A stretch of DNA of 64,000 bases from Myxococcota bacterium (GTDB lineage Bacteria > Myxococcota_A > UBA796 > UBA9615 > JAKLKC01), in the NCBI GenBank assembly GCA_023150875.1, contig JAKLKC010000012.1, positions 5,565 through 69,564 of the forward strand, given 5' to 3'. A program made the translations under genes and the position numbers. Below, piece after piece: positions 6,077-57,625 of the stretch (position 1 is its first letter; the number at the start of each line of letters is the position of its first letter). The notes under the pieces were generated by a model that saw nothing but the letters and a program-made list of their open reading frames with translations, was not told the origin of the DNA and did not search any database.

Positions 6077-6153
6077 CACGTTTCCTGCCGGCCCGGATCC
6101 CGTCCCCGAGCGCTTCCCGCCCCGGACCGGATCCCGCCGGGGCGGCTTCGTGG

Positions 6154-6244
<91 letters not shown>

Positions 6245-39311: not shown

Positions 39312-41348
39312 TCAGGCCACCCCCAGCGCCTTGAACGCCGCCTGCCGCACGTCTCCGAAGAAGATCGGGTCCACCCGCTCCAGGACGTCGGGATGGACGT
39401 CCAGGATCTGGCGCTTGTTCTCGATGGGGACGAGGGCGCGGCGGGCGCCATTGTCCATGGCGACCTGGAGGGGCTCGGTCAGGGAGCGGACCGGCTTGAT
39501 GTTGCCCTGCACGCTCATGTCGCCCAGCACCAGCAGGCTCGCCTGGGGCGGGGACCGGCGCAGGATGGAGTAGGCGGCGACGAAGAAGGCGACGCCGATC
39601 TCCGCCTCCACCCGGTTGCCCAGCAGGTCGATGACCTCGACGTGCAGGTCCGACGTGTCGAGCTCCCGGGCCACGCCGAAGGGGGTCTTCTGGGCGTGGA
39701 GGTGGGCGAAGGCGCGCTGGACCGACTCCTTCATCGCCCCGCTCACGCCCCCCGCCAGCTTCAGCTTGCCGGTCCCCGACGACTGCGACACCTCCACCCG
39801 GTACAGGCCCACCGTGCCGTCCCCGCTGACCGAGGCCGTGTAGACCGTGCCCGGCGGCAGGGGGTCGGTGGAGATCAGGTCGCGCCCCCCCTGCTCGGGA
39901 ACGCCGACGAAGCGCTCCTCGCCCGTCTCGTGGTCGACATAGCTGAAGCTCGTCTGGTAGTACTCGAAGGAGCCCATCTTCTTGAGCTGCTCCTTCACCC
40001 GGCGCCGGCCCTCCAGGGCGAAGGCCAGGACCTCCTCCAGGTCCTCCTTGGAGACCTCGCCGTGGGGGTGCAGGACCTTCACCAGCCCCGACACCGTGCG
40101 CCGCACCGCCTTGCGGTCCCGGGCGTTCAGGTGGGAGCCGAGGTCGAAGTGGTGGTCCAGCGTCTCGGTGAAGTTGAGGCGGCGCAGCTCCCGCATCGCC
40201 TCGGCCAGGTAGTCCACCACGAAGCCGTAGTGGTCGGTGAAGTGTTCGTTGCGCATCTTCGGCACCTCCCACCCCGGCAGGTAGAAGTGCAGCCGGTCGA
40301 TGAACGCCATGTCGTCCCGGATCACGTCCGGCATCGGCGCGAACAGGTGTCCCGTCTGGACCATCACGTCCACCGGCTGCTGGGTGTTGCCGAACATCGC
40401 CACGCTGGCGTAACCCGACGCCTCCTCCTGGCCCCGCTGGTAGCGCCCCGACTCGCAGTAGGTCTTGAGGGTGGTCACCACCTCCTTCGGCATCTTCTGC
40501 AGGTCGGCCACCTCGTCGAAGCCCACCACGTCCCAGATCTGCACCATCCCCTTCTGGCGACCGCTCATGTGGCCGAAGAGGTTGGCCACCGTCGTCGGAC
40601 CCGTCAGCAGCGCCGCGTAGGGCGACAGCTCCTGCACCGCGTAGCTCTTGCCCGTGCCCCGCGGGCCCAGCTCCACCAGGTTGAAGTTCTGCTCGCACAG
40701 GGGCACCAGGCGCGCCAGGAAAAGCAGCTTCAGCCGCCGCGCCATCACCGTCGGCTCGTAGCCCATGCTGCGAAGGAGCAGGTCGATCCACTCGTCGGTC
40801 GTGAACCCGGCCCGCGTCCGCCGGTAGTCGTCCAGGTCGAAGGTGGCGAGCTGGATGGGGGTCAGCTTCTCGATCCAGAACGGGTACCTGCCCCGGTTCT
40901 CGTCGTCGGGCAGGAAGCGCAGGTCCACCTGAGCCCAGATCCCGCCGGTGAGCAGGCGGTCGTAGGAGCGGACGTAGTGCTCGGGCACGCGCACGTGCTG
41001 GTGGCCGAAGTTCGCCAGCTCCGCCCAGTAGTCCGAGTCTACCAGCCGCACCTTCACTTTGTCGATGAAGGTCCAGCGCCCCTTCTCCCGGACCCGGCTC
41101 TGGGCCTTCATGGACTCGTCGGGCCGGATGTAGTTCTCGGCCAGCGTGTCCTTCACCACCTGCAGCCCCATCTGGATCGCCATCTCGTCCGACGAGGCGC
41201 AGTACTTGCCGAGCAGGTACTCCAGGACGAAGACCGGGACGTTCGCCCCCACCTTCACCTTGCGGACGAGGTCCTTGCGGACCACGCGCCCCGCGAAGAG
41301 GCGGTTCACTTTGTCGTCGAGCGCGTCGCGCGTCGGGGGCACGTTCAC
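39312..41348 (-). CDS. brxL: BREX Lon-like protease BrxL
   Basis: N-terminus 'DDKVNRLFAGRVVRKDLVRKVKVGANVPVFVLEYLLGKYCASSDE' matches BrxL family; Walker A 'LGPRGTGKS'; C-terminal Lon-like domain; GTG start. Confidence 0.9.
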   Translation of the reverse strand: MNVPPTRDALDDKVNRLFAGRVVRKDLVRKVKVGANVPVFVLEYLLGKYCASSDEMAIQMGLQVVKDTLAENYIRPDESMKAQSRVREKGRWTFIDKVKVRLVDSDYWAELANFGHQHVRVPEHYVRSYDRLLTGGIWAQVDLRFLPDDENRGRYPFWIEKLTPIQLATFDLDDYRRTRAGFTTDEWIDLLLRSMGYEPTVMARRLKLLFLARLVPLCEQNFNLVELGPRGTGKSYAVQELSPYAALLTGPTTVANLFGHMSGRQKGMVQIWDVVGFDEVADLQKMPKEVVTTLKTYCESGRYQRGQEEASGYASVAMFGNTQQPVDVMVQTGHLFAPMPDVIRDDMAFIDRLHFYLPGWEVPKMRNEHFTDHYGFVVDYLAEAMRELRRLNFTETLDHHFDLGSHLNARDRKAVRRTVSGLVKVLHPHGEVSKEDLEEVLAFALEGRRRVKEQLKKMGSFEYYQTSFSYVDHETGEERFVGVPEQGGRDLISTDPLPPGTVYTASVSGDGTVGLYRVEVSQSSGTGKLKLAGGVSGAMKESVQRAFAHLHAQKTPFGVARELDTSDLHVEVIDLLGNRVEAEIGVAFFVAAYSILRRSPPQASLLVLGDMSVQGNIKPVRSLTEPLQVAMDNGARRALVPIENKRQILDVHPDVLERVDPIFFGDVRQAAFKALGVA

Positions 41349-41352
41349 GGGG

Positions 41353-43920
41353 CTACCTCAGGAGGCTCGTGGGCAGGGCGGGGGACGAGGCGAGGACCGC
41401 CCCCGAGGCCGGATCCAGGACCACCACCTTCACCGACGCCGCGTCCTCGCCGCCCAGCGTCAGGCCGACGTGGGCCTTCGCGCCCGGCCGGACCCGCAGC
41501 ACCCCCCGCTCCCGGTCGAGCTCGCCCCCGCTGACCATGCCCGCCGCGCCCACCTGCTGCTGCTCCGACAGGACCACCACCCGCAGCTCCACCGCCTCGG
41601 GCGCGAACAGCGGCGGCGCCTTCACCTCGACCTCCACCACGAAGACCCGGTTCGTGATGCGCTCGGGCAGCCCCGCCAGGACCACCTCGATCCCGCCCGT
41701 CCCCGGCGCCGGCTCCCCCGCCGGGATCCGGAAGGAGAGGACCGGGATCACCAGCTCCTGGAGGCTCGTGCTCCCGTGGTGGAAGCTCAGGTCCCCGCCG
41801 GCCTTGAACACCCCCAGGCCCGCCGGGAACACGAGCTCCAGGTCGCCGGCGTAACCGAGCTCCCCCGCCGACACCCGCACCGTCCCGGGGGGCGTCGCGC
41901 CGCCGCGGCCGATCCAGACCCGCCGGTGGAGCTCCACCGTATCGCCGCCGGGGGCGTCGGTCTTCATGTCGTCCCCCTTCCGCAGCCCGAAGAGGTGGCC
42001 GTGGTCGGCGGTCACCACGAAGTGCTCCACCCCCGCGGCCGAGAGGCGCCGGGCCGCCCGGGCGAGGTCGCCGATCACCCCCTCCATTGCCCGCCGGGCC
42101 AGGTGGTCGTCCCCTGTCTCGCCCAGGTAGTCGATCTCCGTCGACCGCACCACCACCAGGGACCGGCCCGCGACCCGCCGCCGCAGCTCGGACGCCTTGT
42201 CCTGGAGCACCCGGCTCAGGGTCAGGTCCACGACGTCGGGCACCCGCGCCTGCAGGTACCTCGTCCGCTCCGTCACCCCCGAGAGCGGCACCCCGTCCAC
42301 CAGGGCCGCCACCTTCCCCTTGTGGGCCACCACCGACAGGTTCGCGGACGCCCCCGGCAGCAGCGCCGCCATGCCCACGGGCGTGATGGTGGGCAGGGCC
42401 GCCACGGCGGGGAGCAGGTGGAGGTCCAGGGCCCCCGGGAGCTGCCGCGCGAGCTCCACCCCCATCTCGTACCGCAGCGCGTCGACCAGGAAGTACGCCA
42501 CCGGCCCTCCCCGGGTCGCCACCACGTCCGGGTGGACGCGCGCCTGGTGCAGGACCCCCGGCACGCTCCAACCCGCCCGGGCGAGGGCCGCGGTGAAGCC
42601 CCGGGCCATGTCGTGGAGCAGCCGCTCCGCGTCCCGGAGCACGACGCTGATCGCCTTCTCGAACAGGGACTCGTCGCCGACCCGCCCCCGCCACGTCTCC
42701 AGCGCCCGCTGGGCGGCGTCCACCCGGTGCCACCCGTCCTCGGCGGCGTAGCCCGCCACCCAGGTCTCCGGACCCGCCGAGGTCGGGGGCAGGCTGCCCT
42801 TCACCGCCCCGATCCGCAGGCCGAGCACGGCGACGCGCCGCGCCACCTCCCATTGCTCCTTGCGGGGGACGCGGGTGGCCTCGTCGGTCCACTCCACCCA
42901 GAAGCTCCGCTCGCGATCCTCCACCACCTCCAACGCCTCGCCGAACCGTCCCCGCTCCAGCAGCTCGGCGCACCAGGAGAGCAGGAGCCGCTCCTCGAAC
43001 TCGAAGGTGTCGATGCGCCCCAGGTCCTCCGCCCGCACCTTCGCCCTCGCCAGGTGGAACTCCTGCTCCACCTGCCGGGCCCGGGCCGCGTAGGCCGGGG
43101 CGTGGTCCCGCCGGAAGCGCCGGGCCAGCTCCCGCACCTGCTCGCGTTGGGCCTCGGTCTCTGGCGCCGGCTGCCCGGACATCGACGCGGGCGGAGGCGC
43201 CCGGAGGTCCATCCGGAACTCGCCCAGCAGGACGTAGCGGGCGAGGCGGCCGCGGGCCTGGGCCAGGGGAAGGCCGTCGTCGAGGTGCAGGCCCACCTTC
43301 GAGGCGACGAGGCGGTACAGCTCCGCGGCGGCGCCCTTCTCGGCGATCTCCGCGTCCCGGGCCTCGTCGGCGAGCCACCGGACCAGGATCTCGGAGTCGG
43401 CGGCGTCCCCGAAGATCACCTTCAGCCGCGACGCCTCGCCGCCGTCCCGCTGCGCCAGGAAGGCCACCACGTCGTCGTAGGTGGCGCGCCCTCCCTCCAG
43501 CACCTCGTCGATGACCCCGTCGGTGTAGCGCCGGCGCAGGCAGTCCCGGGCCTGTCGGGGGAAGTCCCAGTCCAGGCGGCGCCCGGCCTTCTGCAGCTCC
43601 ATGAGCACGTCCCGGGCGGGCTCGGGCAGCTCCGCGGGCACGTAGACCAGGAGGGGCGGATCGGGGGGGCCGTCCCCCGCGAAGAAGGGCTCGACGGCGT
43701 CCCGCACCGCGAACCACGAGCCCTCGAAGGTGACGAGGCGGGCCCGACCGTCGCCCAGGTCCACCTCGAAGACGTCGGGGTGCTCGTCGCTCCAGGCACA
43801 CGCGCCGGCCAGGTCGTCGAAGAAGGGCCGGAAGGCGCCGGCGGGGTCCACGACGACGGCGACACCCCGACGCAGCGCGGCGCGCACCTGCTCGGCGAGG
43901 TGGGTGTGGAAGGGGTTCAT
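41353..43920 (-). CDS. pglZ: BREX alkaline-phosphatase-superfamily protein PglZ
   Basis: 'YFLVDALRYEMGVEL', 'VVTADHGHL' PglZ motifs; ATG at 43918-43920 overlaps stop of upstream gene (ATGA). Confidence 0.9.
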   Translation of the reverse strand: MNPFHTHLAEQVRAALRRGVAVVVDPAGAFRPFFDDLAGACAWSDEHPDVFEVDLGDGRARLVTFEGSWFAVRDAVEPFFAGDGPPDPPLLVYVPAELPEPARDVLMELQKAGRRLDWDFPRQARDCLRRRYTDGVIDEVLEGGRATYDDVVAFLAQRDGGEASRLKVIFGDAADSEILVRWLADEARDAEIAEKGAAAELYRLVASKVGLHLDDGLPLAQARGRLARYVLLGEFRMDLRAPPPASMSGQPAPETEAQREQVRELARRFRRDHAPAYAARARQVEQEFHLARAKVRAEDLGRIDTFEFEERLLLSWCAELLERGRFGEALEVVEDRERSFWVEWTDEATRVPRKEQWEVARRVAVLGLRIGAVKGSLPPTSAGPETWVAGYAAEDGWHRVDAAQRALETWRGRVGDESLFEKAISVVLRDAERLLHDMARGFTAALARAGWSVPGVLHQARVHPDVVATRGGPVAYFLVDALRYEMGVELARQLPGALDLHLLPAVAALPTITPVGMAALLPGASANLSVVAHKGKVAALVDGVPLSGVTERTRYLQARVPDVVDLTLSRVLQDKASELRRRVAGRSLVVVRSTEIDYLGETGDDHLARRAMEGVIGDLARAARRLSAAGVEHFVVTADHGHLFGLRKGDDMKTDAPGGDTVELHRRVWIGRGGATPPGTVRVSAGELGYAGDLELVFPAGLGVFKAGGDLSFHHGSTSLQELVIPVLSFRIPAGEPAPGTGGIEVVLAGLPERITNRVFVVEVEVKAPPLFAPEAVELRVVVLSEQQQVGAAGMVSGGELDRERGVLRVRPGAKAHVGLTLGGEDAASVKVVVLDPASGAVLASSPALPTSLLR

Positions 43921-44915
43921 CCGGGGTCCTCGGTCGCGGGCTGGCTCTCGTCGTCCAGGATCACCAGGCGGGTGACTTGCAAGCGCCCCGTCCGGCGTCC
44001 GCCACCCGCGCGTCGGACTCCGTGGACCTCGACCCGTCGGTCGAGGGCCTCGATGGCCGTGTCGAGCAGCTCCGGCTCGAAGCCGCACGGGACCTCCAGG
44101 GCCGCATCGCCGACGTTCCGCAGCGTGAACGACAGGTTGTCGAGGTCGATCTCCCGCAGGTCCCCCGCGTAGGTCAGGACGACCTCCGAGGCGGCGGCGT
44201 CGATGGCCGCGTCGATCCGCCGATGGGCCGCGCGTGTCAGCGAGACGGGGCGCCCGCCGGCCGAAGGTCCCGACAGCTCGACCGCGTCGACCCCTCCCCG
44301 GGGGCGCGGGGCGAGGCGCTTGACTTCGGTCAGCAGCACCCGGCGGAGCCCCGCGTCGGGGACGCGCCGCGCGAGGGCGCCCTCGTCCTCGTCCGACCCC
44401 GCCCAGGCGGCCACCGTCGCGTACTTGTCCAGCGCTTCCCTCGCCGCGCCCGCGACGCTCCCCGCGTCGGCGTCCTCGCGCTCGGGAAGGCGCAGGCCGA
44501 CGCGGACGCTGCCCGGCCGCAGGCTCAGCACCTCCAGGTCGCAGGCCCGCTGGATGGCGAGGGTCGGACGGGTCGAGAGGGACCCGGTGGCGATCCACTC
44601 GGTCCCCGACTGGATCCCCTTGCGGAGCGTGTTGAGGAAGGTGGTCAGGACGCTCGTCGGCGTGGCGGGCCAGTCGATCCCGGCGCCGCGGACTCCGAGC
44701 CAGAGGGGGGCCTCCGCCTCCTCGGCCACCGCCCGCCCGGTGTACTCGCGCAGGTCGGCCTCCATCCGCCGGATCTGGTCGAGGGGCCCCTCCGACATGA
44801 CCGCGAACCAGGCGTCGCTCAGGCGGGGACGGTCCCGCTCCAGAGCGGCCAGCGACTCGTACATCCGAGCGAGCTGCTGGAGCGTGACGCGGAGCTCGGT
44901 GTCGTTGCGGATCAT
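43917..44915 (-). CDS. uncharacterised protein (332 aa) translationally coupled between an NTase-like gene and pglZ
   Basis: ATGA overlaps at both ends (44912-44915 and 43917-43920); no known motifs recognised. Confidence 0.55.
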   Translation of the reverse strand: MIRNDTELRVTLQQLARMYESLAALERDRPRLSDAWFAVMSEGPLDQIRRMEADLREYTGRAVAEEAEAPLWLGVRGAGIDWPATPTSVLTTFLNTLRKGIQSGTEWIATGSLSTRPTLAIQRACDLEVLSLRPGSVRVGLRLPEREDADAGSVAGAAREALDKYATVAAWAGSDEDEGALARRVPDAGLRRVLLTEVKRLAPRPRGGVDAVELSGPSAGGRPVSLTRAAHRRIDAAIDAAASEVVLTYAGDLREIDLDNLSFTLRNVGDAALEVPCGFEPELLDTAIEALDRRVEVHGVRRAGGGRRTGRLQVTRLVILDDESQPATEDPG

Positions 44916-45355: not shown

Positions 45356-45482
45356 GGCGCCTCGGGGAGAAGCGGGGAGAGCTGGCGGGCGGAACGGCTC
45401 ATGCACGGTCCCCGACCGGCCTGCGGTCCGCCACATCGGGCGCACCGATCCGGGGGATGCTGCCGGAGGGCGGGAGCGCGGC

Positions 45483-45542
45483 GACGCCCCGGCGCCGCGC
45501 GGCGCGCACCAGCTCGGCGAGGTGGGTGTGGAACGGGCTCAT
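45483..45542 (-). pseudogene. remnant of a second pglZ 5' end (20 codons, MSPFHTHLAELVRAARRRG...)
   Basis: 45483-45542 ~ 43861-43920 at nt level incl. ATGA junction; similarity stops abruptly. Confidence 0.5.
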
Positions 45543-46228
45543 CCGGGGCCCTCGGCGCGGAGGCGGCCCTGGCGGCGGAGCTGCCTCGCCACCAGCGGGC
45601 ACTCGCAGGCCAGCCAGGAAAGGGGCCACGGTTCCGGCGGATCGTCCGGGTCGGTCCGCAGGCCGTGGTACCGGTCGTGGTATTCCGCACGTGCGTCACA
45701 GAAGACGGGGTCGTTGAGGCCCAGCCTCGAGATCGTCGCCTCGACCTTCGCCCGGACCTCGGCTTCCAGGTCGTCCGCCGGGGCGATCTCGAAGCTCGCC
45801 ACGTCCAGCGTGAACCAGTGGTCCTGGACCTCGAAAGGGTCCAGCACGTCCTCGTGGTCGCCCTTGTTGGTGTTCACCTGGGCGGCCGCGAGGCGGAAGT
45901 TCGACCACTCGTAGGCGAGGCGCCGGTCCCTCGACTTGGGGACGAAGTGGTCGACCGTGGCGGCTCCCGTCGCCTCGTGGATGCGCATGCCCAGGTAGCC
46001 GCACACGTTCCCGTAGCGCCGCCGGAGCTCGGGCAGCGCGCGGGTCCAGAACGTGGGGAGGTTCTCCACGGGGATGGCGTCGATGGTCGTCGCCACGACG
46101 CTCCGCTTGCGGCCTCGCCGTGGGGGACCCGAGGTATCACCGACGAGTTCACGGAGGGCTCGCTCGCCCGGGATCCTCACGAGCTCGTCGAAGTCGGCCG
46201 GTTCCTCGGCGGGATCGACGTGGATCAC
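45539..46228 (-). CDS. HNH endonuclease (PtuB-like)
   Basis: 'CGYLG...VDHFVPKS...WSNFRLAAAQVNTNK' HNH motif; GTGA overlap with upstream ATPase. Confidence 0.7.
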   Translation of the reverse strand: MIHVDPAEEPADFDELVRIPGERALRELVGDTSGPPRRGRKRSVVATTIDAIPVENLPTFWTRALPELRRRYGNVCGYLGMRIHEATGAATVDHFVPKSRDRRLAYEWSNFRLAAAQVNTNKGDHEDVLDPFEVQDHWFTLDVASFEIAPADDLEAEVRAKVEATISRLGLNDPVFCDARAEYHDRYHGLRTDPDDPPEPWPLSWLACECPLVARQLRRQGRLRAEGPG

Positions 46229-47511
46229 GCGGGCTCCGGCGGAAGGTGCTGCGACATGAAGTGCCGCCAGCGGACGAAGAAGGGGTCCATCGCCGGGAGG
46301 AGGCGGCCGAGATCGGCATCGACGTTCCGGATCCGGTCCGGGTCGGGTGAGGGCTCACGAATGAGCCGGCGGGCGGCTTCGATGGCCCTCTCCGCGTCTA
46401 CCGACGTCGCCTCGCCGAGATCGAATACGTCGGAGCGGAGCCACCGGCTCGCGTCGCCCCTCAGGTGCCACTCGTCCTTTGCGATCTGGACCATCCCGTC
46501 CACCAGGTCGAGCTTCCACAGGGCGTCCCGGGAGGGGTCGAACACGGGCTCCATCGAGGCGAGGATCAGGGGGGAATGGGTCGCCACCAGGAACTGGACG
46601 TCGGGAGCGGCGTCGTCGTGCCACCCGCGCACGGCCTCGTGGATGCCACGAAGCACCGTCCGCTGCCACCTGGGGTGGAGGTGGGTCTCGGGCTCGTCGA
46701 TGAGCACGATCAACTGGCGCGACATGGGCCTGCCCATGCTGGCGCTCTCCCGCTCGTGGGCGGACAGGGACCAGGCCAGCAGGTAGGCCAGCTTGCACAT
46801 CCGCTGCACCCCCGCCGGGGCGTATGTGATGGGGACGTCCTGGCCGTAGGGCATGGATACGGTGGGGATCGCCCGGTCGTCGTCGGGGTACGGGTACCGT
46901 GGCTCTCCCGGCCGCAAGGGTTCTCCTTCGGGGCCCAGGGCGGCCAGCAGCCTGCGGAGCAGCTCGAACCTCGGGTCCTCGCTGCGCTGCCAGAGGATCC
47001 AGTCCAGGATCAGCCCGGAGCAGATCGTCTGCTCCCGCTCCTGGCCGCCCTCGGTGATGGTCCGACGCAGGCCGTGGAAGACCTGGCGTGGGCTGAACTG
47101 GTATGCCGGTGGCGCCTCGATGTTACCGCCGTCGGGGCGCTGATAGAGGCGGTAGTTCCGAGCCGGGTCCCAGGCCGAGAACGAGCCGTCCACGCGAGCG
47201 TACAGGACGAGGCCCGGGTTCGGGGGGCGGCCCGGGGCCCGCCGCCAGGTCTGGGCTCCCGGGAGCCACTTGGAGACCGCTTGGTGGGGTCGCCGTTCCC
47301 CGTCGAAGGCGAAGGCGATCTCGGCGTCCTGCGCGTTCGGGACCGCGGGCGACTCGTGCCAGGTGCGGGTCAGGGCCCACCACCCCACATCCAGCAGGAA
47401 CGACTTCCCGAGCCCGTTGTCCCCGGTGATCAGGTTGAAGCGGCGCGCGATGGGGTCCATCACCAGCGACGCGCCGGGCCCGACCCGGGTGAGCTTCAGC
47501 TTCCTCAGCAT
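46225..47511 (-). CDS. AAA/ABC-type ATPase (PtuA/OLD-like)
   Basis: Walker A 'TGDNGLGKS', Walker B 'LIVLIDEPETHLHP', 'ATHSP'; ATG overlaps pglX stop (TGATG at 47509-47513). Confidence 0.7.
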   Translation of the reverse strand: MLRKLKLTRVGPGASLVMDPIARRFNLITGDNGLGKSFLLDVGWWALTRTWHESPAVPNAQDAEIAFAFDGERRPHQAVSKWLPGAQTWRRAPGRPPNPGLVLYARVDGSFSAWDPARNYRLYQRPDGGNIEAPPAYQFSPRQVFHGLRRTITEGGQEREQTICSGLILDWILWQRSEDPRFELLRRLLAALGPEGEPLRPGEPRYPYPDDDRAIPTVSMPYGQDVPITYAPAGVQRMCKLAYLLAWSLSAHERESASMGRPMSRQLIVLIDEPETHLHPRWQRTVLRGIHEAVRGWHDDAAPDVQFLVATHSPLILASMEPVFDPSRDALWKLDLVDGMVQIAKDEWHLRGDASRWLRSDVFDLGEATSVDAERAIEAARRLIREPSPDPDRIRNVDADLGRLLPAMDPFFVRWRHFMSQHLPPEPA

Positions 47512-50500
47512 CAGGAATCCTCGGCGGGCGGCGCCTTGGGCAGCGCCAGGTCGAGCTGGTGACTGCGCTCCTGACCGCGCCGGGGGCGCTCGGGAGCGGC
47601 TCGCGCCGGACGCCCCGGGGACCGGCGGGCCGGCGCGGGCGGCGGCGTGTGGGTGAGCTTCGCCAGGGCGTCCTTCACGGCGGGGGAGGTGCGCTCCCTC
47701 ACGAGGGACTCTACGACGTCGCCCTCGACCTCGCGGGGAGACCACCGACCGTCCTCGTCCGGGCACCAGAAGACGTCCTCCAGGCCGTGGGCGATGGCGA
47801 GGCTGCGGTCCAGGGCGCACTTCGGGACCACGCGCTCGGGCCACAGGCGCATGGCCAGGTGGGACCAGTCGTACTCGGCCTCGCAAAGGCGGGCGAAGGC
47901 GCCCTCGCACTCCTTCTGCCAGCTCCGGGTGTGGGCGAAGAGGCGGTGCAGCGGCGCGGCGTTGAGGATCACGCCGTCGTCGAGGTCCGGGTCCCACAGG
48001 GGGGCCACCCGGGCGACCTCGTCCCGGAAGGCGCGAAGCTCGTCCACGAAGGCCTCCTGCTCGGCCAGGGCGCGCCGCTGGGAGGGCGTGGGCGTGCCGC
48101 CGACCTCGGCGCGGAGGTGGGCGAGGCGCCCCTCCTCGAAGCGCAGCTTGGGCGCGACGTGGTCGTGGAGGACGCGGTGCAGGGTGTCCCGGGCGAAGCG
48201 GTGGATGTAGACCCACACGCTGTAGCTGCCCGAGGGGGTGCCCAGGCGCCAGTAGATGGGGGCCTTGCGGCGGCTCCGCGAGTAGCGCTGGACGTGCTCG
48301 GCGAAGAAGGCCCGCCTCAGCCAGGGGCGCAGGTCATCGGCGCCGGGGTCGAGGAGGGCGGTCGCCTCCCTGAGGCGCTCGTCGCCGTCGTCGCCGAAGA
48401 CCACGTCGAAGACCCGCCGGATGCACCCGAGCAGGTCGCGCTCGTGGCCGGGGTCGTCGACGAGGATCCCGTCGGTGGGGAAGGCGATGGGGTAGCCGGC
48501 GGGCGGTGCGTCCGCGGGCAGGCCGTCCTCGCCGGTCAGCATGCCCGGGGAGCAGGGGGGGAGGGGATCGAAGGGGTCGGGCTCGGGCGGTAGCGGGCGC
48601 TCGCCGGTGGCGAGGCGGATGTCGAAGCGGCCGTATGCCGTGCCCACGAGCGCGCTGACTACGGGCATCACCACCTCAGCAGCACCGAACTCGGGGGACC
48701 ACGCCGTGCTGAGTTTGCGCACATCGTCGGACGCGGTCACCCCGAACAGTTGTGCGATTTCGTCATCAATGACAGCTAACGCTTCATTGAATTTGTGGAG
48801 CTCCACCTTCCTCCGGCAATGCTCATCCGCAACAAGGCCGCGACCGACTCCAGTTCCGTAGATATGCGCAGGCATTCCACCAAACGTAGGATCCAATTCA
48901 TCCAAGCCGCGAAGAGCCCTAGCCGCGCTAATCGCTATCATACTGGCATGTTCAACGCGCTTCTTGACCTCCTCTTGTGGCCACCGCCAATTCAGCGACT
49001 TCACCAGCCCGGTCGGGAATGCGGAAGCTGTGGACCGGCTCATTACGGCCTTTCGCGTAACGGCGGCGTTCAACCATCCGACGAGATATGCATTGCTAAC
49101 GGACTCTGTGATGGAAATAACGGCGGGGCCGACAATCGACATGATGACACCCCGGGGTAGGTTCCGAACTGCAAATCCGAGCGTCGACCGGTACGAGTAC
49201 GTTGCCCCGCCCCTGTACCACCACGAAGATCCCGTTCGGCACTGCGCCGTCTGTCCATTGATGGCCATGTTCACAGCATCTAGCTCCGCTCCGTCCTGCC
49301 TTCGGTTCAGGACCAGATGGACGTCGCCGTAGAATGGCTGGAATTCGCCCCCTTTGGCATACCGTGCCCAGCACTTGGGTGATAGATCTCTGGCATTGAC
49401 TTCAGTCCAGATGCGGAGGAACCGCTCGTCGTCATGAGTCAGCGGCCCTTGACGAGCTGTTCCTGCTGCGGGTTCGAACGACTCGCTTTGTTCCCCGATC
49501 TGCGTGGATGCCAGTGCTCCACCTGTCAATACTTGATGTGCTACGCTCATGACTATTTGCCGCCGCGCCCGCCACGCTGGATCACGAGGACGACCGGCAG
49601 AAGCAGCGAGGAGGGCTTCCGCGCTTTGCCCCGGTTCGCCCGAGACCACGAATACCGAGTCTTCTGCACTTCCGGGGGCGCCGGCCAGTACAAAGTAACA
49701 GGCCCGGACTACAGCATCGTCCATGAGCCCCATTCCAGCATCGACCAGTATTGCGAAGCGATCGTTGAACTTGTGCCTCCTCCAGCGACCAAGTCTCTTG
49801 GTTGTCAGCACGCTATTGGGAGCCACAACACCGATCGGTCCATTCGTCAGTTCGGCTGCACGGTCGACAAGAGCCGCAGATGCCTCGACGTACGAGAGGG
49901 AGCGATTTCGCCTTAGAAGCAGGAATGGAGAATCGGGGAGCCTCCCAAACGGCGGATTCATCAACACCACGTCGTACCGCCCCCGGCACACGTCGATGAA
50001 CGCGAACCCCCGCGCCGCGTCCTCGGCGAACAGCCTCCTCCGGTACGCGTTCCCGGTCGTCGCCCCCTCGGCGTACTCCCTCAGCGCCTCGTAGACCTTG
50101 CCCTCGACCTCCTCCCACCGCTCCCGGTCCAGCCGCGCGTACATCGGCCCCCGGCTGAACCGCTTCTCCAGCTCCTGGCGCACCGTGTCCTCGATGCGCA
50201 GCAGGGTCCCGGCCTCGCCCGCGAGCCTCATCTCTTCGAACACCCGCCGCACCAGGGCGGCGACGTCGGGGTCCAGGCCCCAGCAGAACTCGTCCAGCAG
50301 GTCCGCCTCCCCCGGCATGGGCTCGGCGATCACCACGTTCGTCCGGGTCACGAGCGGTCGCTTCGCGCGGTCCAGGCCCAGGTCCTTCCACGCCCTCTGG
50401 GCCCGCATCCACAGCGCCAGTGCCGCGATCTGGGCGGCCCGGGGGTCGATGTCCACCCCGTACAGGTTGTGCCTCAGGACCAGCCCCGGCAGCTCCCGCC

Positions 50501-51617
50501 GCAGCGCCTCCCGCGTCGCGTAGTCCTCGCGCAGGCTCCTCCCGGTGGCCTCCGACGCCGGGGAGCCCTCGTCCTCCCACGCCTCCTCGTAGATCACCAG
50601 GAGCAGGTCGAAGGCGTAGAGCAGGAAGTGACCCGACCCGCAGGCCGGGTCCAGGATCTTCAGGTCCCGCGGGTCCTTCTTCGCCCGGAAGGGCAGGTGG
50701 ACCGGCCGCTGCTCGGGCGGGACCGTCTCGTCGGGCTCGGGCGCGGCCTCGCCCTCCGCCAGGAACACGGTGCCCGGCCGGCGCACGAGGTAGCGGCAGA
50801 GCTCCGCGAGCCGCGTCCCGCCCCGGCGCATCTCCAGCCAGGTCTGGCCGAGGGTGTTGTCGGTCAGGAACTCCACGACGTAGCGCGGGGTGAAGAACTG
50901 GTTGCGGACCGCGAGCTCCCGGCTGTCGCGGGGGGCCTGGGACTCGGCCCGCATCCGCCGCCGCTCGTCCTCGCCGTTGAAGTACTGGTAGACCCAGCCG
51001 ATGGTCTCGTCCTCGCCCCACACCTGGGCCAGCTCGGGGTCGTTCAGGACCCCCAGCAGATCCTCCAGCGCGTTGCGCCGGGGCCAGAGCAGGCTCGCGG
51101 GGTCGCGGCGGTCGAAGAGGACCCGCACCTCGCGGCCCACCTCGTCGAAGAGGCACTCCAGGTAGAGGCGGTAGGCCTCGTGGGGCCGCACCTTCAGCCC
51201 CTCGGCCAGGCCCTGGAACTCGCGGAAGCCCGACGATGCCAGGGCCCCCCTCACGCTCTCCCTCACGATCCCCCGCGCCTCCAGCATCTTCAGGGCGACG
51301 AAGCGGTTGAGGGTGGTGAAGGCGCACTCCCGGGTGAGCGCCGCCACCGCCTCGGGCGCGGTCCGGCCCTGGGCGCGGTGGTGGGCGACGGCGTCCACCA
51401 GCCTCCGCCGCACCCGGCGGGCCGCGGGGTCCTCATCGAGATGGCGCCCCGCCTCCTCCGCCACCGTGCCGTCCGGGCGGATGTCGAAGGTGCCCTCGAG
51501 CTGGGCGGCGATCTCCCCCTCGAGCAGGCGGCGGGCGGCCTGGGTGGCGCGCTGGATGCGGTTGCGGGTGTCCTTGTCCATGCCTCGGGGCCGTGGGCGC
51601 GGGGCGGCGGGGATCAT
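47511..51617 (-). CDS. pglX: BREX N6-adenine methyltransferase PglX
   Basis: 1368 aa; 'VVLMNPPFG' motif IV at ~49948-49962, 'DPACGSGHFL' motif I; position between brxC and pglZ. Confidence 0.85.
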   Translation of the reverse strand: MIPAAPRPRPRGMDKDTRNRIQRATQAARRLLEGEIAAQLEGTFDIRPDGTVAEEAGRHLDEDPAARRVRRRLVDAVAHHRAQGRTAPEAVAALTRECAFTTLNRFVALKMLEARGIVRESVRGALASSGFREFQGLAEGLKVRPHEAYRLYLECLFDEVGREVRVLFDRRDPASLLWPRRNALEDLLGVLNDPELAQVWGEDETIGWVYQYFNGEDERRRMRAESQAPRDSRELAVRNQFFTPRYVVEFLTDNTLGQTWLEMRRGGTRLAELCRYLVRRPGTVFLAEGEAAPEPDETVPPEQRPVHLPFRAKKDPRDLKILDPACGSGHFLLYAFDLLLVIYEEAWEDEGSPASEATGRSLREDYATREALRRELPGLVLRHNLYGVDIDPRAAQIAALALWMRAQRAWKDLGLDRAKRPLVTRTNVVIAEPMPGEADLLDEFCWGLDPDVAALVRRVFEEMRLAGEAGTLLRIEDTVRQELEKRFSRGPMYARLDRERWEEVEGKVYEALREYAEGATTGNAYRRRLFAEDAARGFAFIDVCRGRYDVVLMNPPFGRLPDSPFLLLRRNRSLSYVEASAALVDRAAELTNGPIGVVAPNSVLTTKRLGRWRRHKFNDRFAILVDAGMGLMDDAVVRACYFVLAGAPGSAEDSVFVVSGEPGQSAEALLAASAGRPRDPAWRARRQIVMSVAHQVLTGGALASTQIGEQSESFEPAAGTARQGPLTHDDERFLRIWTEVNARDLSPKCWARYAKGGEFQPFYGDVHLVLNRRQDGAELDAVNMAINGQTAQCRTGSSWWYRGGATYSYRSTLGFAVRNLPRGVIMSIVGPAVISITESVSNAYLVGWLNAAVTRKAVMSRSTASAFPTGLVKSLNWRWPQEEVKKRVEHASMIAISAARALRGLDELDPTFGGMPAHIYGTGVGRGLVADEHCRRKVELHKFNEALAVIDDEIAQLFGVTASDDVRKLSTAWSPEFGAAEVVMPVVSALVGTAYGRFDIRLATGERPLPPEPDPFDPLPPCSPGMLTGEDGLPADAPPAGYPIAFPTDGILVDDPGHERDLLGCIRRVFDVVFGDDGDERLREATALLDPGADDLRPWLRRAFFAEHVQRYSRSRRKAPIYWRLGTPSGSYSVWVYIHRFARDTLHRVLHDHVAPKLRFEEGRLAHLRAEVGGTPTPSQRRALAEQEAFVDELRAFRDEVARVAPLWDPDLDDGVILNAAPLHRLFAHTRSWQKECEGAFARLCEAEYDWSHLAMRLWPERVVPKCALDRSLAIAHGLEDVFWCPDEDGRWSPREVEGDVVESLVRERTSPAVKDALAKLTHTPPPAPARRSPGRPARAAPERPRRGQERSHQLDLALPKAPPAEDS

Positions 51618-51663: not shown

Positions 51664-54600
51664 CTACTGCACCCAAACCTTCTTGCCCTCCCCGATCAGC
51701 CGCTCGCACTCGTCCCGCAGGGCCTGGATCGCCGCGTCGAGCTGCTCGGGGGTCTCGACGCCCCCCGGGAAGAACGACGACACCCGCACCCGCACCACGC
51801 GGTTGCCGTCGATCATGCGGAGCATCTCCTCCGTCGCCGCCTGGAGCCGCGCCGGGCACGCCTCGGTCTCGGCGCGCACCTGGGGGATGGGGGTGGGGGG
51901 CGGCAGGGCGGTGGTGGCGGGGCCCGCGAGGGGGGCCTCCACCCGGGCCTGCTGGGCAGCGTCGAGCTGGGACCACTCCGGCGCCCCGCGCAGGCGCTCC
52001 ACGGCGGCGGCGTAGGCGGCGCGCCGGGCCTCGACGGCGGCGTCGAAGCGGGCCCGCCAGGCGGCGCCGACCTCCCGGGCGTGCTCGTCGATCCGCGGCA
52101 GCTCCCGGAAGAAGGTCTCGCGCCGCAGCAGGTCGTCCAGCTCCTCGGCCCGCGCCGCCAGGCCTTCGGGGAGGTCCGGCTCCTCCTTCAGGAACGGCCA
52201 CTGGCGGCGCACCGCGTCCCGGGCACGGGCGAGGTCCAGGAGGCGCGGCTCGGTCAGGGCGTCGTCCAGCTCGGCGGCGCGCTTGATGCCCGCCTTGATC
52301 TCCCCGCAGCTCGCGTTGAACGTGGTGATGGCGTTGTCGTCGCCGCCCGTGCGGATCACGCGGACCTGCTCCAGGGCGCGGGCCAGCACCTCGGCCCCCG
52401 GCAGGTCGTCGCGGACCAGGCGGTTGTGGACGTCCTGAAGGGCCTGCTCGTGGCGATGGACCTCGTCCTTGATGGCGCGGGCGACGACTCCCGGCTCCAG
52501 CTCGGCGATCTCCTTGCCGAACACGTCGCGGAAGTGCCCGTCCGCCTTGACCAGCTCCCCGTAGTCGACGCTGACCTTCGGCCGGAACGTCGCCTGCCGG
52601 AAGAGGTTGTTGTTGGTGAACGTCGTCCGCGCGTCGAGGGAGAGGGCGTTGTCGATCACCTGCCCCCGGGAGACCGCCTCCACCTTCCCGGCGCGCAGAA
52701 GGCTCGCCACCAGCAGGCGCACCACGTCGAAGTCCCAGCCGAAGGGCTCCTTGCCCAGCTCGTCGGCCAGCGCCCGGCCGCTCACCAGCTCGCCATAGGC
52801 CGCCTTGTGGGCGATCCGGTTCATCACCTCGGAGAGGGGACCGCCCTCGGTGCGGAACGCGGGCTTGCCCCTCGTCTCCTGGACGAGCTGGAGCTGGGAG
52901 AAGACCGGCGGGAGGCCCCGGAGGTTCTCGGTGGTCAGCAGGGCCTCCAGGTCCTTCGCGGACACCTTCGCGGCGCCGTCCGAGAAGCGGTCGAAGACCT
53001 CGGGGAGCACCCTCGCGAGCACGCCCGCGCAGGCGCGGCCCACGTCGGCGGCGCCGGCCTCGGGGTTGCGCTCGTTGCCGCGGAAGTAGACGGTGCCGGA
53101 GAGCAGGGCTTCCCGCAGGCGCCGCCTCAAGTCGTCCTGGTGGCGCTGGCGGCGGCGCTTCTCCTCGGCCACGAGGGCGGTCTCGTCCCGGGTGGTGGCG
53201 TTGCGCTCGCGTCGGGCCAGGATCTCCTGGCTGCGGAAGACCTCCTCGGTCACGCGGTCCACGGCGTCGTCCAGGCGGGCGATCCAGAAGACGGCGGTGC
53301 GCTCCTCGCGGCTGCGCTGCCGCCACTCCTCGCGCAGGCGGCCCCACTCGGCCTCGTCCGGCGCCAGGGAGACGTGGACCGGAACGTCGCCGGGGGTGAC
53401 GAGGCGGTTGTTCAGGAAGAGCCCGGCCCGGAAGGGCTTGACGTCACGCAGGAGGTGGGACGGCTGGGGCGTCCACAGCCCGTCCACCACCTCGGCGTGG
53501 ATCCGGGCGGCGTCGGCGGGCCGGAGGGAGAGCTTGCCCCGCTGGCCCTCCCAGTCGTCCTCGGCGGGCGTGGGGATCCGGTAGCCGTCCTCGCCCAGGC
53601 GGATGCGGCCCGCGGCGACGAGGGCGTCCAGGGCCGCCTTGACCTCGGGGAGCTGGGAGTCGGCGGTGACGCTCGGGTGGAGGGTGGCGGCGACGTTCTC
53701 GGCGGTGCGGGGGATCCGCTGCTCGTACTGGAGCAGGCAAACCGCCTTGGCGACGGCCTGGGCGCGGGGGTGCGGCACCTCGCGGCCGATGTCGTCGATC
53801 TTCCGGCGCACGTCGCTCGAGACGTTGCCCGAGACGAGGTCGTACACGCGATCGAGGGTGACGAGGGTCCCCTCGGGCTTCGAGGCGAGGTCCACCTCGG
53901 GGTGGATGAGGAGCTGCTGGGCGAGCTTGATGATGGTGCGGGCGGCGCCGCCGACGTGTTTGCTGGCGCCGCCCTGGGTGCGCAGGCCCGAGACGACGTT
54001 GATCACGAGGTCGATCTGGTAGGGGAGGAGGGGGTAGAGGTCGATGAAGCCCTGGTCGGTCAACTCGGGCAGGGCGACGTTGGGGGCGTGGACGCGGGTG
54101 TGGTCCACGAGGCGGCCCCGGTGCTCCCGGTGGAGGGCGCGCAGGCGGGCCTGGGCGTCGGCGTGCTTCTCGAGGACGCGGCGGCTGGTGACCTCGGAGA
54201 TGTCCGAGGGCTCCAGGTGCACCTGGAGGGGGAAGCGGTCCTTCACCTTCGGCAGCTCGATGCGCGTCTGGTCGAGGCCGCCGACCAGCTCCGAGAGGGC
54301 CTCCTGGGAGGTGACCATGACCCAGATCCGCCCGCCGCCCCGCTGGCCCAGGCGCTCGACCACGGCGCGGAGGTCCTCGAGCTTACCGCCGTCCTTGGCG
54401 ACGAACTGGCCGACCTCGTCGATGACGAAGAGCAGGTTGCGCTTTTCGGGCCGGCGCCTCGACAGCAGCTCCAGGCAGCGGTCCGCCAGCAGGGCCGGGG
54501 TGACGTCGCCCCGGCCCTTCGCCCCCTTCACCCAGGAGTCGGGGGCGTTGTAGGTGCGGGGCTCCAGGGCGTGCATGACCGCCGAGGCCCGGCCGATGGC

Positions 54601-55218
54601 GAGGGCGGGCAGGCCCTTGTCGTGGTCCCAGGCCCGGCGGTCGTGGAGCTCGGCGTACTTCGCGACGAAGGCGCCGAGGCGGCCCTCGGCCTCCAGCGTG
54701 ATCTCCAGCTCGGCCAGGTCCAGCTCCCGGGCGTAACCGAGCCGCTGGAGGAAGAGGCGGTACATGATCTCGGTGATCGACTGGTTTCCGGCGCGGATCC
54801 CCCGGTCGGTCGAGACGTCGAAGATCACCGCCTCGGTGGGGACCATCTCGTTCACCTGGCGGAGCAGGACCTCGGCCTTGTTGTCCTTGGGGACGCTGAG
54901 CCGCCGGGCGAGGAGGTCGCCCGCGCGCGCGCCGCCGCCCAGGTCGCGGTCCTCGATGGCGAGGCCTAGCATCTTGGCGAAGCTGGACTTGCCCGAGCCG
55001 AAGAAGCCCGAGATCCACACCGCGGTGCCGTCGTGGGGCTTGCGGAACGCCTCCAGGTAGGCCTCGAGGATGGCGATCTGCTGCCTCCGGATGGAGTCGG
55101 TGACGACGTACTCCGACAGCTCGTGGCGGATCCGCGCCAGGTCGTCGTCGTCGACCTTCACGACCTCCTCGATCCGGCGGTCGACGTCGCGGGCAAAGAG
55201 CTCGGCGATGCGTTCCAT
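51664..55218 (-). CDS. brxC: BREX ATPase BrxC
   Basis: 1184 aa; P-loop 'GFFGSGKSSFAK', 'LLFVIDEVGQF' Walker B; N-terminus 'MERIAELFARDVDRRIEEVVKV' typical. Confidence 0.9.
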   Translation of the reverse strand: MERIAELFARDVDRRIEEVVKVDDDDLARIRHELSEYVVTDSIRRQQIAILEAYLEAFRKPHDGTAVWISGFFGSGKSSFAKMLGLAIEDRDLGGGARAGDLLARRLSVPKDNKAEVLLRQVNEMVPTEAVIFDVSTDRGIRAGNQSITEIMYRLFLQRLGYARELDLAELEITLEAEGRLGAFVAKYAELHDRRAWDHDKGLPALAIGRASAVMHALEPRTYNAPDSWVKGAKGRGDVTPALLADRCLELLSRRRPEKRNLLFVIDEVGQFVAKDGGKLEDLRAVVERLGQRGGGRIWVMVTSQEALSELVGGLDQTRIELPKVKDRFPLQVHLEPSDISEVTSRRVLEKHADAQARLRALHREHRGRLVDHTRVHAPNVALPELTDQGFIDLYPLLPYQIDLVINVVSGLRTQGGASKHVGGAARTIIKLAQQLLIHPEVDLASKPEGTLVTLDRVYDLVSGNVSSDVRRKIDDIGREVPHPRAQAVAKAVCLLQYEQRIPRTAENVAATLHPSVTADSQLPEVKAALDALVAAGRIRLGEDGYRIPTPAEDDWEGQRGKLSLRPADAARIHAEVVDGLWTPQPSHLLRDVKPFRAGLFLNNRLVTPGDVPVHVSLAPDEAEWGRLREEWRQRSREERTAVFWIARLDDAVDRVTEEVFRSQEILARRERNATTRDETALVAEEKRRRQRHQDDLRRRLREALLSGTVYFRGNERNPEAGAADVGRACAGVLARVLPEVFDRFSDGAAKVSAKDLEALLTTENLRGLPPVFSQLQLVQETRGKPAFRTEGGPLSEVMNRIAHKAAYGELVSGRALADELGKEPFGWDFDVVRLLVASLLRAGKVEAVSRGQVIDNALSLDARTTFTNNNLFRQATFRPKVSVDYGELVKADGHFRDVFGKEIAELEPGVVARAIKDEVHRHEQALQDVHNRLVRDDLPGAEVLARALEQVRVIRTGGDDNAITTFNASCGEIKAGIKRAAELDDALTEPRLLDLARARDAVRRQWPFLKEEPDLPEGLAARAEELDDLLRRETFFRELPRIDEHAREVGAAWRARFDAAVEARRAAYAAAVERLRGAPEWSQLDAAQQARVEAPLAGPATTALPPPTPIPQVRAETEACPARLQAATEEMLRMIDGNRVVRVRVSSFFPGGVETPEQLDAAIQALRDECERLIGEGKKVWVQ

Positions 55219-55229
55219 GGCGGGTCTCC

Positions 55230-55817
55230 TCAGAAGATGCGGGGCCGGTAGTTGTGCTCGGCGTCGATCGCGCCCATGAAGCGCAGGCCGGCGGGGCCGT
55301 CGGTCTCGCCGGGGTAGAAGAGCACCGTGGGAACGGCCACCTGGCCCACGAGCTGCTCCAGAAGGGCCGAGGTGCGGTAGAGGGGGTACAGGGCGCCGGC
55401 GCGGACGAGGAGGACGACGTCCCGGAGGGGATCAGCGTCCTTCGGGACCCGGGCGGCGACGAGGCGGTCGAGGCGCTGGTACTCGGCCAGGACCGAGAAG
55501 GCGGTCTCGATCGCCAGGGGGAGGCCGGCCTCGCGCTCCGCCGCGGCGAGGGCGCCGCCCCCCAGCCCCTCGGCAGCGAGGGCGGCGGCGAGGCACTCGG
55601 CGAGGGAGATCCGGGTGACGCGCTTGCCCTTCTGGCCGAGGCGGGTGGCGAGGAGGGTGACCTCCTTGCGGAGCTCGAGCTCGTCCTCGGGCGGGTAGAC
55701 GAAGACCACGAAGGGCATGTCGTGGTAGGCGCTGATCCCCGGGCGGGGGTCCTCCTTGATCAGCGCGGGCTCGAGCCGCCCGGTCAGGCGGGCCTTCCAA
55801 GAGGGAGTGGGGGTCAA
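55230..55817 (-). CDS. brxB: BREX protein BrxB (DUF1788)
   Basis: 'VVFVYPPEDELELRKEV' BrxB N-terminal signature; inferred TTG start with RBS aggag, overlapping brxA stop (TTGA). Confidence 0.7.
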   Translation of the reverse strand: MTPTPSWKARLTGRLEPALIKEDPRPGISAYHDMPFVVFVYPPEDELELRKEVTLLATRLGQKGKRVTRISLAECLAAALAAEGLGGGALAAAEREAGLPLAIETAFSVLAEYQRLDRLVAARVPKDADPLRDVVLLVRAGALYPLYRTSALLEQLVGQVAVPTVLFYPGETDGPAGLRFMGAIDAEHNYRPRIF

Positions 55818-56602
55818 GGCGACAACTCCTCCCGCGCGAACTCCTCGGCGGACGCGCGGGGCAGGCGGAGCTCGGCGACGCTGCCGGCGACCTCGTAGCG
55901 GAGCCGGCCGAGCTGGTGGAGGCGGAACAGCTCCCGTTGCACGTCGTCGGGCCCCATGAGGTACATCCGCCAGTCCGGGGCGTGGACCAGGCGGTGGGGG
56001 TTGGGCTCCTCCCGGGCGGCGGCGTGGAGCAGGTAGAGGAAGGCGTCGTCGGGCAGGTGGTAGGGGACGAACTCCCGGGCGAGGGTCCCGGTCATCAGCC
56101 CGAAGTCCACGGCCATGCGGAGCAGGCCCGAGGCGACGCGGGAGGTGGTGGAGGGGGACCAGCGCTCCTTGATCTCCACGTCCTCGCGGTCGTGGAGGCC
56201 GTCGAGGTAGGGCGCGACGTCCTCGGTGCGGATCCGGAAGGCGCCGGCGGCGTGCTGGTCGTAGAGCCACCGCGACAGGAAGTCGCGCACCAGGAACTCG
56301 TCCCGGGTCATGTGCCACAGGAGCAGGGGGCGGAAAGTCTCGAGGGCGAGGCCGCGCCGGGCCAGCTCGACGAGGACTCGGTCGCGGCCCTCGGTGTCGA
56401 AGCGACGGTTGACGGTCTTGGCCAGGTCCCGCCACCAGTTCGCGCTGCCGGCGCCGACGGGGTCCGCGGACTTGAGGCGGTCGAGGTTCCACTTCCGGGG
56501 CCGGGAGAGGTCCCAGTGGCGGAAGAGGTCGTAGGTGGGCTCGACGAGGGCCCCCTTGATGACGGTGAACGACGAGACGACCCGGGCGCGCGCGCCGGCC
56601 AT
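55814..56602 (-). CDS. brxA: BREX protein BrxA (DUF1819)
   Basis: N-terminal 'VVSSFTVIKGALVEPTYDLF' matches BrxA 'YSSGF...' start; ATG overlaps upstream stop (TGATG). Confidence 0.7.
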   Translation of the reverse strand: MAGARARVVSSFTVIKGALVEPTYDLFRHWDLSRPRKWNLDRLKSADPVGAGSANWWRDLAKTVNRRFDTEGRDRVLVELARRGLALETFRPLLLWHMTRDEFLVRDFLSRWLYDQHAAGAFRIRTEDVAPYLDGLHDREDVEIKERWSPSTTSRVASGLLRMAVDFGLMTGTLAREFVPYHLPDDAFLYLLHAAAREEPNPHRLVHAPDWRMYLMGPDDVQRELFRLHQLGRLRYEVAGSVAELRLPRASAEEFAREELSP

Positions 56603-57156
56603 CACCCCTCCAGGCGGGCGTAGGGGATGGCGGGGGCCTCCCTCTCGCCCCGGAAGAAGCCGGCGGCGAGCAGGCCGAGGGTCTCGTCGTCGAGGGCGCA
56701 CACCCCGGGGAGGGGGACGGCGCGCCCGTCGACGGAGCGCTTGAGGTGGCGGGCCCGGGCCAGCTCGGCCTCGCCGAGGACCTCCAGGGAGCGCAGGCCG
56801 TGGAGCACGTCGCCCTGCAGCCCCGTCAGCGCGGCGAAGAAGGGCGCCCAGCGGTCGGGCTGGTCCATCCAGTCCTGGAGGTGGTCCTCGAAGACCTCCT
56901 CGACCTCGGGGGGGAGGCTGAACAGGGTGGCGCAGGCCGGGGGGTTCCAGAGCTCCCGCGTGCGGGCGCGGGCCACGGCGAGCGCGACCCGGGCCTGGGC
57001 GAACGGGGCGGTGCGAGGGAAGCTCCGCTCGTACAGGGTGCGTCCCAGCGGCCCGAGGACGCCCCGGGTGTTCCACCAGCCCAGCCGGTCCATCTCGCCG
57101 AGGCGCGCCACCACGAGGCGGAGCCGGAAGAGGCGGTCGAAGTCGATCGCGTGCAT
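56602..57156 (-). CDS. hypothetical protein (185 aa) translationally coupled upstream of brxA
   Basis: ATG at 57154-57156; stop overlaps brxA ATG; no recognised motifs. Confidence 0.5.
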   Translation of the reverse strand: MHAIDFDRLFRLRLVVARLGEMDRLGWWNTRGVLGPLGRTLYERSFPRTAPFAQARVALAVARARTRELWNPPACATLFSLPPEVEEVFEDHLQDWMDQPDRWAPFFAALTGLQGDVLHGLRSLEVLGEAELARARHLKRSVDGRAVPLPGVCALDDETLGLLAAGFFRGEREAPAIPYARLEG

Positions 57157-57625
57157 TCGAGACCCGCGGGGAGGGCGGTGGCGGCGGCCCCCGTCCCGGC
57201 GGGCGCACCCGGCGCGAGCGCGCCCGCCCGGGCGCATTCTCTCGCGTCGGCGACGGCGGGTGAAGGGGAGGGGAGCGTGGGGAGGGGCGATTGCCGGGAT
57301 CGATCCGGGATCCCCCACGGTCGGGGAAGGGGAGTCGAGGCGGTAGACCCGGCGTCCCCGAGGGTCGAGGAAGGGTGGTCTACCCCCTCGATCCGGCATG
57401 ACCCGAGGCAGCCGCAGTCAAGGCGTAGCCGGATCGCCCGCCACGGCAGAGCCAGCGCGTCGCGAGGAGCCGTGCGAGGTCGGGGTGATCCCCACCGCGG
57501 TCCCCGAGCCGCCGGACGATCATGCCAGGGCCGGCGAGGGCCAAGACGGCAGCATCCACGCATGTCATCCCTCGGTCGCGCATGTCAGGACGCGGATACC
57601 GGCTTCCGCTGGCCGCGGAAGGCCC

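Follow-up and report, generated by a model that had tools for sequence, protein, structure and literature searches.

The window, a stretch of 64,000 nucleotides (nt) from contig JAKLKC010000012.1 of the Myxococcota bacterium assembly GCA_023150875.1 (positions 5,565 to 69,564 of the forward strand), contains a bacteriophage exclusion (BREX) operon in which brxA is preceded by one additional open reading frame (ORF). This ORF, located on the minus strand at 56602..57156, runs from an ATG at 57156 to a TGA at 56604-56602 and encodes a protein of 184 residues (185 codons with the stop). Its translation, MHAIDFDRLFRLRLVVARLGEMDRLGWWNTRG..., matches exactly the protein quoted in the initial annotation. 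The gene order is brxE-brxA-brxB-brxC-pglX-(PtuA-PtuB-DUF6932-unknown)-pglZ-brxL, with all genes on the minus strand. Very probably, this ORF is the brxE gene, encoding a protein of the known BrxE family, and opens a BREX phage-exclusion operon of the BrxL type that is type 1 by composition.

The length of the ORF is by itself uninformative, because the window has a G+C content of 73% and open frames as long as brxE arise by chance in all six frames. This abundance of long ORFs would suit the reading that brxE is not a gene but a frame left open by chance in G+C-rich DNA, which is opposed by several features. The G+C contents at the first, second and third codon positions (GC1/GC2/GC3) are 0.78/0.50/0.98; there are hundreds of homologues over many phyla, with 25 invariant columns in a 53-sequence alignment spanning several of them; the synteny is fixed and the structure model is confident. 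Conservation and codon-position evidence already refute the chance reading, whose probability is negligible, and brxE is confirmed as a genuine protein-coding gene. Its codon-position values are indistinguishable from those of brxA (0.73/0.46/0.98) and likewise from those of brxB and brxC. The same frame remains open for a further 243 nt on the 5' side (57157-57399), where the corresponding values of 0.80/0.75/0.75 display no coding pattern; consequently, 57156 is taken as the true start. The N-termini of the homologues in the 53-sequence alignment lie within a few residues of this position and agree with it.

The junction between brxE and brxA (56600..56611, minus strand) is very compact. Read along the coding strand, a Shine-Dalgarno-like GGAGGGG (56611-56605) stands directly ahead of TGATG, in which one base is common to the brxE stop codon and the brxA ATG at 56602-56600. 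The initial annotation had described an extra ORF ahead of brxA whose TGA overlaps the brxA ATG and had taken this to imply co-translation. The overlap is confirmed from the sequence, and the high GC3 makes the ORF a real gene; tight coupling to brxA is equally evident, and its translational nature is graded as probable. Among the 112 related loci possessing both genes, 111 have them no more than 20 nt apart. With the default brxA start call the two genes overlap by 4 nt in 43 loci and by 1 nt in 9, and a candidate brxA start that would overlap brxE is available in up to 69 of the 112. The arrangement is typical for this operon, since most of its other junctions also overlap or sit a few bases apart.

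The assignment to the BrxE family follows from a profile search of the kind that the initial annotation had proposed. On the NCBIfam model NF033447, "BrxE family protein", the ORF product scores 125.9 bits (cutoff, 40), its residues 6-181 covering positions 1-169 of the 169 in the profile. The equivalog NF033448, "BREX-6 system BrxE protein", is not passed (53 bits against a cutoff of 80, residues 5-99 only), and the PADLOC BrxE model gives 27 bits. An identical 184-residue protein is present at NCBI under the name "BrxE family protein [Myxococcota bacterium]". Furthermore, Pfam PF26412 appears in the precomputed annotation of the window protein and of all listed homologues; a scan of the Pfam library returned no match for the window BrxE, the library being evidently older than this entry. 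Homologues form 261 clusters at 90% identity, and a profile search against 1.84 billion representatives gave, at E <=1e-3, 736 clusters at 50% identity, almost all of them stand-alone proteins of about 185 residues. In length and in its site directly upstream of brxA the window protein is like the rest of the family (NF033447; PF26412), with no material difference. The suggestion that it might be an unrecognised BREX component is thus not borne out: it passes NF033447, has a PF26412 entry and is already so named at NCBI. The gene belongs to a named and automatically annotated family, is not a new component, and is in itself of little consequence. In the BREX literature, the name BrxE is traced to the founding BREX study, the content of which is cited here through PMC12839542 and PMC10164562.

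Longer members of the family were considered as domain fusions that might reveal an interaction partner (Rosetta-stone reasoning), and this reading was rejected, as each results either from a wrongly called start or from an in-frame deletion that yields a chimera with PglX or BrxA. Four such proteins (P0213, P0218, P0245 and P0224) join the N-terminal half of BrxE in frame to the C-terminus of PglX, with three different junctions, or to that of BrxA. In another locus (L144:59-2287), from which brxA is missing, a C-terminal fragment of PglX terminates with a BrxE-like tail and continues into brxB. These chimeras look like independent deletions or rearrangements within the operon, which would inactivate BREX. 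The only domain fusion of BrxE that was seen is the protein encoded at L157:1499-2206, which carries an MJ0042-type CXXC zinc ribbon at its N-terminus.

The remaining genes of the operon were assigned from profile matches. Gene brxA (55814..56602, minus) encodes a BrxA of the long form (262 residues; Pfam PF08849, 48.7 bits; PADLOC PDLC02454, 276 bits), and brxB (55230..55817, minus; 195 residues; Pfam PF08747, 54.5 bits; PADLOC BrxB, 172 bits) begins with a TTG that overlaps the brxA stop. They are followed by brxC (51664..55218, minus), encoding a P-loop ATPase of 1184 residues that scores 779.7 bits on NF033441 against a cutoff of 400, and by pglX (47511..51617, minus), encoding an N6-adenine methyltransferase of 1368 residues. 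The latter passes the BREX-1 PglX model NF033452 (550 bits against 500; PADLOC PglX, 1192 bits) and fails the BREX-6 model NF033455 (334.8 bits against a cutoff of 900). The gap of 46 nt between brxC and pglX (from 51664 to 51617 as annotated) contains no gene, and hence no BrxD. At the distal end, pglZ (41353..43923, minus; about 856 residues; PADLOC PglZ, 791 bits) is followed by the last gene of the operon, brxL (39312..41348, minus), encoding a Lon-related AAA+ protein of 678 residues that scores 977 bits on TIGR02653 against 628 and 952 bits on the PADLOC BrxL model. PglZ passes no subtype cutoff: it fails both BREX-1 models (TIGR02687, 109 bits against 270; NF033450, 65 against 400), and the NCBIfam model that it matches best is the BREX-6 PglZ (257 bits; cutoff, 400).

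The interval from pglX to pglZ is occupied by four tightly packed cargo genes (43917-47514), and at most of their junctions the stop and start codons overlap. They comprise the Septu genes PtuA (46225-47514, minus; PADLOC, 468 bits) and PtuB (45539-46228, minus; PADLOC, 201 bits), a gene for a DUF6932 protein (44912-45445, minus; 89 bits on DUF6932) and a gene for a protein of 336 residues (43917-44927, minus), which has a coding signal by frame and no match in Pfam, NCBIfam or PADLOC. PtuA after pglX is also found in five related loci.

The presence of BrxL, the lack of BrxD between brxC and pglX, the lack of BrxHI, and a PglX that is above the BREX-1 cutoff but below that of BREX-6 indicate that, as judged from its gene content, the system is type 1 by composition and not type 6. 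According to two published accounts, BrxD is a component of types 2 and 6 (PMC10164562) and helicases take the place of BrxL in types 5 and 6 (PMC12839542). A type 6 reading of the operon was rejected on the same grounds, as BrxD and BrxHI are absent and BrxL is present. All six type 1 genes (BrxA, BrxB, BrxC, PglX, PglZ and BrxL) occur together in one operon with a leading brxE, which bears out the claim of the initial annotation that an extra gene stands ahead of brxA in a type-1-like system. With canonical type 1 systems (E. coli HS, Acinetobacter, Salmonella) the window operon shares all six core genes, their order and the terminal BrxL; it differs from them by the added brxE, the long BrxA, a PglZ below both BREX-1 cutoffs, and the four cargo genes, including Septu PtuA/PtuB, between pglX and pglZ. 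Type 6 BREX (BrxE, BrxA, BrxB, BrxC, BrxD, PglX, PglZ, BrxHI) likewise has a BrxE-type gene ahead of brxA, and the PglZ of the window is nearest to the BREX-6 PglZ model; however, the window has neither BrxD nor the BrxHI helicase and has BrxL, and the BREX-6 BrxE can be aligned to the window BrxE only over about 100 N-terminal residues, below the equivalog cutoff (53 bits against 80). The system accordingly has the appearance of a type 1 lineage with a relationship to type 6, and the PglZ scores suggest a lineage intermediate between the two types as they are now defined.

The position of brxE recurs in other genomes. A scan with one genome per species gave 174 genomes with a BrxE relative, distributed over many phyla, and a metagenome scan was anchored on the conserved N-terminal half of PglX, with 10-kb flanks that reach both ends of the operon. 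In all 80 of the retrieved genome loci that extend far enough, brxE is followed by brxA-brxB-brxC-pglX, and the metagenome loci behave likewise. The whole series from brxE to brxL is visible in at least 19 loci; every one of the 36 loci with a complete pglZ runs on into brxL, and none runs on into a helicase. No brxE was seen outside BREX operons among the 160 loci sampled. The only BrxA genes of the window clade without a BrxE match, three in number, lie at contig edges. Homologues upstream of brxA in related loci, which the initial annotation had named as a check, are present in 112 of 112 assessable cases.

A second, divergent group of loci, also ending in brxL, has BrxA, BrxB and BrxC proteins only 24-33% identical to those of the window. 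This distant clade possesses a separate BrxE-family gene, scoring 110-150 bits on NF033447, which overlaps brxA and has a small helix-turn-helix (HTH) gene before it. Querying a plasmid collection with the window BrxE gave no match, and a query with the distant-clade BrxE gave one annotated plasmid. The complete RefSeq plasmid NC_019941.1 (Thioflavicoccus mobilis pTHIMO01) carries annotations for the series BrxE family protein - DUF1819 - BrxB - BrxC - methyltransferase ... PglZ - BrxL. The sub-clade of the window BrxE and the clade of the RefSeq plasmid are only about 34% identical over the N-terminal 82 residues, and between the two BrxE clades no more than about 90 N-terminal residues can be aligned. 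Cultured bacteria with a BrxE-bearing operon also include Lamprocystis purpurea DSM 4197, Thauera sinica, Actinoplanes flavus and Geomonas propionica. In both divergent BrxA/BrxB/BrxC lineages, brxE lies invariably directly upstream of brxA.

These observations bear on how BREX systems are classified. In a BREX survey (2025/2026), which contains the only substantive mention found, BrxE is described as being of unknown function and exclusive to type 6. This exclusivity is contradicted by the loci examined here, in which BrxE-family genes are common in BrxL-type operons: the gene also occurs outside the rare type 6, standing invariably at the head of many operons that terminate with brxL. A classification that uses BrxE as a type 6 marker consequently mislabels such operons. 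Curated annotation already reflects the occurrence of BrxE in BrxL-type operons, whereas the searched papers do not state it, and its distribution in type-1-like systems is wider than the literature indicates.

The interval between brxC and pglX in the related loci is a second hotspot of variable cargo. No BrxD was found in these gaps; in ten loci the cargo includes Schlafen AlbA_2/HATPase_c_4 proteins, a type IV restriction enzyme (GmrSD), a Fic protein, and proteins with RelA/SpoT domains.

The region upstream of brxE is relevant to a regulatory role. Directly ahead of brxE, and often overlapping it by 4 nt, 19 of 86 window-clade loci have a small excisionase/MAD1-like HTH gene, and an XRE-type small HTH gene occupies this position in all distant-clade loci examined. 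Loci with an HTH gene before brxE are L003, L005, L013, L014, L020, L034, L044 and others, as well as L097, L098, L117, L119, L128, L142 and L150. Taking into account also that brxE is the first gene of the operon and that one BrxE (L157) bears an N-terminal zinc ribbon, the protein could regulate the BREX operon or its activity, for example as a co-regulator or sensor acting with the small HTH protein, in the manner of restriction-modification controller proteins or of BrxR. In the window itself, however, the approximately 1.16 kb upstream of brxE shows no coding signal, HTH gene, sigma-70-like promoter, terminator or Rfam match, and most window-clade loci also have no upstream HTH gene, so that BrxE is not dependent on one. 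Moreover, BrxE has no DNA-binding domain, and its coupling to a structural gene together with its co-inheritance with BrxB and BrxC suits a subunit better than a trans-acting regulator. A regulatory function is thus considered unlikely. The comparison with BrxR, the WYL-domain winged-HTH regulator found upstream of some BREX loci, leads in the same direction: both are small genes ahead of brxA, but brxE is probably coupled translationally to brxA and not separately transcribed, and its fold matches no regulator. As neither an HTH nor a WYL domain was found in BrxE, the judgement of the initial annotation that it is not a BrxR-like winged-HTH-WYL protein was sound.

Structural prediction gives a well-defined picture of the protein. 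The AlphaFold2 model, calculated from the 53-sequence alignment, is compact and of alpha/beta type, with a predicted local distance difference test score (pLDDT) of 96 and a predicted template modelling score (pTM) of 0.92. According to this model, residues 6-135 would form seven helices, and the protein would also have a small beta-alpha-beta unit and a final strand. Foldseek searches of the model against the PDB and against viral models revealed no relative, and a sequence profile search of the PDB returned nothing. Weak matches recur to three unrelated helical families, namely Cas11/Csa5, the N-terminal domains of HsdM/PglX-type methyltransferases and GntR FCD domains; the matches are read as generic helical similarity. 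The family is acidic (median isoelectric point 5.7) yet bipolar in charge, with about +6 in the N-terminal 75 residues and about -9 in the remainder. The basic N-terminal part contains the conserved motif RLRLVVARxGEMDxxxWWNTxG...FPRT, and the acidic C-terminal lobe is more variable. Among the invariant residues are R13, R18, G20, E21, D23, W27, W28, N29, R44, R65 and E86. As a compact, confidently modelled protein for which neither the PDB nor the viral models offered a structural relative, BrxE is a well-defined target for further study.

The conservation of seven charged residues and of the WWN motif throughout the 53 sequences, from several phyla, would also be compatible with an enzyme, or with a sensor of a ligand or phage protein, such as a trigger sensor or a decoy against anti-BREX proteins of the DNA-mimic type. 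The strongly acidic C-terminal lobe would be in line with this proposal, and a fold with no known relative leaves room for an unseen activity. Conversely, no enzyme family or fold match was obtained by sequence or by fold in Pfam, the PDB or the viral models, an Arg/Trp-rich conserved motif is commoner on binding surfaces than in active sites, and none of the 160 sampled loci has brxE outside a BREX operon, so that an enzyme or sensor appears improbable. Even less credit is given to the idea that BrxE is a copy of the all-helical dimerisation domain found at the N-terminus of HsdM/PglX-type methyltransferases, encoded here as a separate protein that modulates the assembly of PglX. The Foldseek search finds nothing of the kind, profile-profile comparison with the N-terminal half of PglX gives a probability of 0.1%, and the rates of the two do not covary (partial r = 0.02); this explanation is regarded as highly improbable.

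Taking into account the fixed position of brxE, its overlap with brxA and the distinct BrxE clade that accompanies each BrxA/BrxB/BrxC lineage, a subunit co-inherited with this front half of the system is the favoured interpretation. Specifically, it is tentatively proposed that BrxE is made together with BrxA and serves the BrxA/BrxB/BrxC module as a small accessory subunit devoid of catalytic activity. Translational coupling would yield BrxE in a fixed proportion to BrxA, and the protein would act inside the BrxA/BrxB/BrxC "front half", the DNA-scanning and scaffolding part that would license both PglX methylation and exclusion. The basic N-terminal lobe would probably contact DNA or an acidic surface of a partner, and the acidic, variable C-terminal lobe would probably make lineage-specific protein contacts. 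A mirror-tree analysis of 78 operons weakly supports the placement of BrxE in this module: BrxE distances track those of BrxB (r = 0.81, partial 0.28), BrxC (r = 0.82, partial 0.36) and BrxA (partial 0.22), but do not track those of the N-terminal half of PglX (partial 0.02).

Several considerations weigh against this accessory-subunit proposal. A mirror-tree comparison of genes from one operon is confounded by shared ancestry, and the rate covariation of BrxE is weaker with its coupled neighbour BrxA than with BrxB and BrxC. The invariant charged residues R13, R18, E21, D23, R44, R65 and E86 would also fit a catalytic or ligand-binding site. The literature searched yielded no experimental work on any BrxE. 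Furthermore, it is established that the best-studied type 1 systems, those of E. coli, Acinetobacter and Salmonella, function without BrxE, which therefore is not a universal requirement. A more far-reaching version of the same interpretation is more speculative still. In that version, BrxE would be an obligatory subunit, of a new fold, of the BrxB/BrxC/BrxA module in a large and overlooked sub-class of BrxL-type BREX, comprising two deep lineages with representatives in Myxococcota, Chromatiaceae, cyanobacteria, actinomycetes, Planctomycetota, Acidobacteriota and others; the textbook exclusivity of BrxE to type 6 would be wrong, and BrxE would supply a DNA-contact or phage-sensing function that E. 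coli-type systems obtain otherwise.

On the far side of the intergenic region of approximately 1.16 kb, a gene for a large serine recombinase (58322-60079, plus strand; Resolvase, Recombinase and zinc-ribbon domains) diverges from brxE. The BREX island may lie on or beside a mobile element. Far from the BREX locus, the window also contains two adjacent tRNA-Ser genes (5987-6244, plus strand) with the anticodons CGA and GGA.
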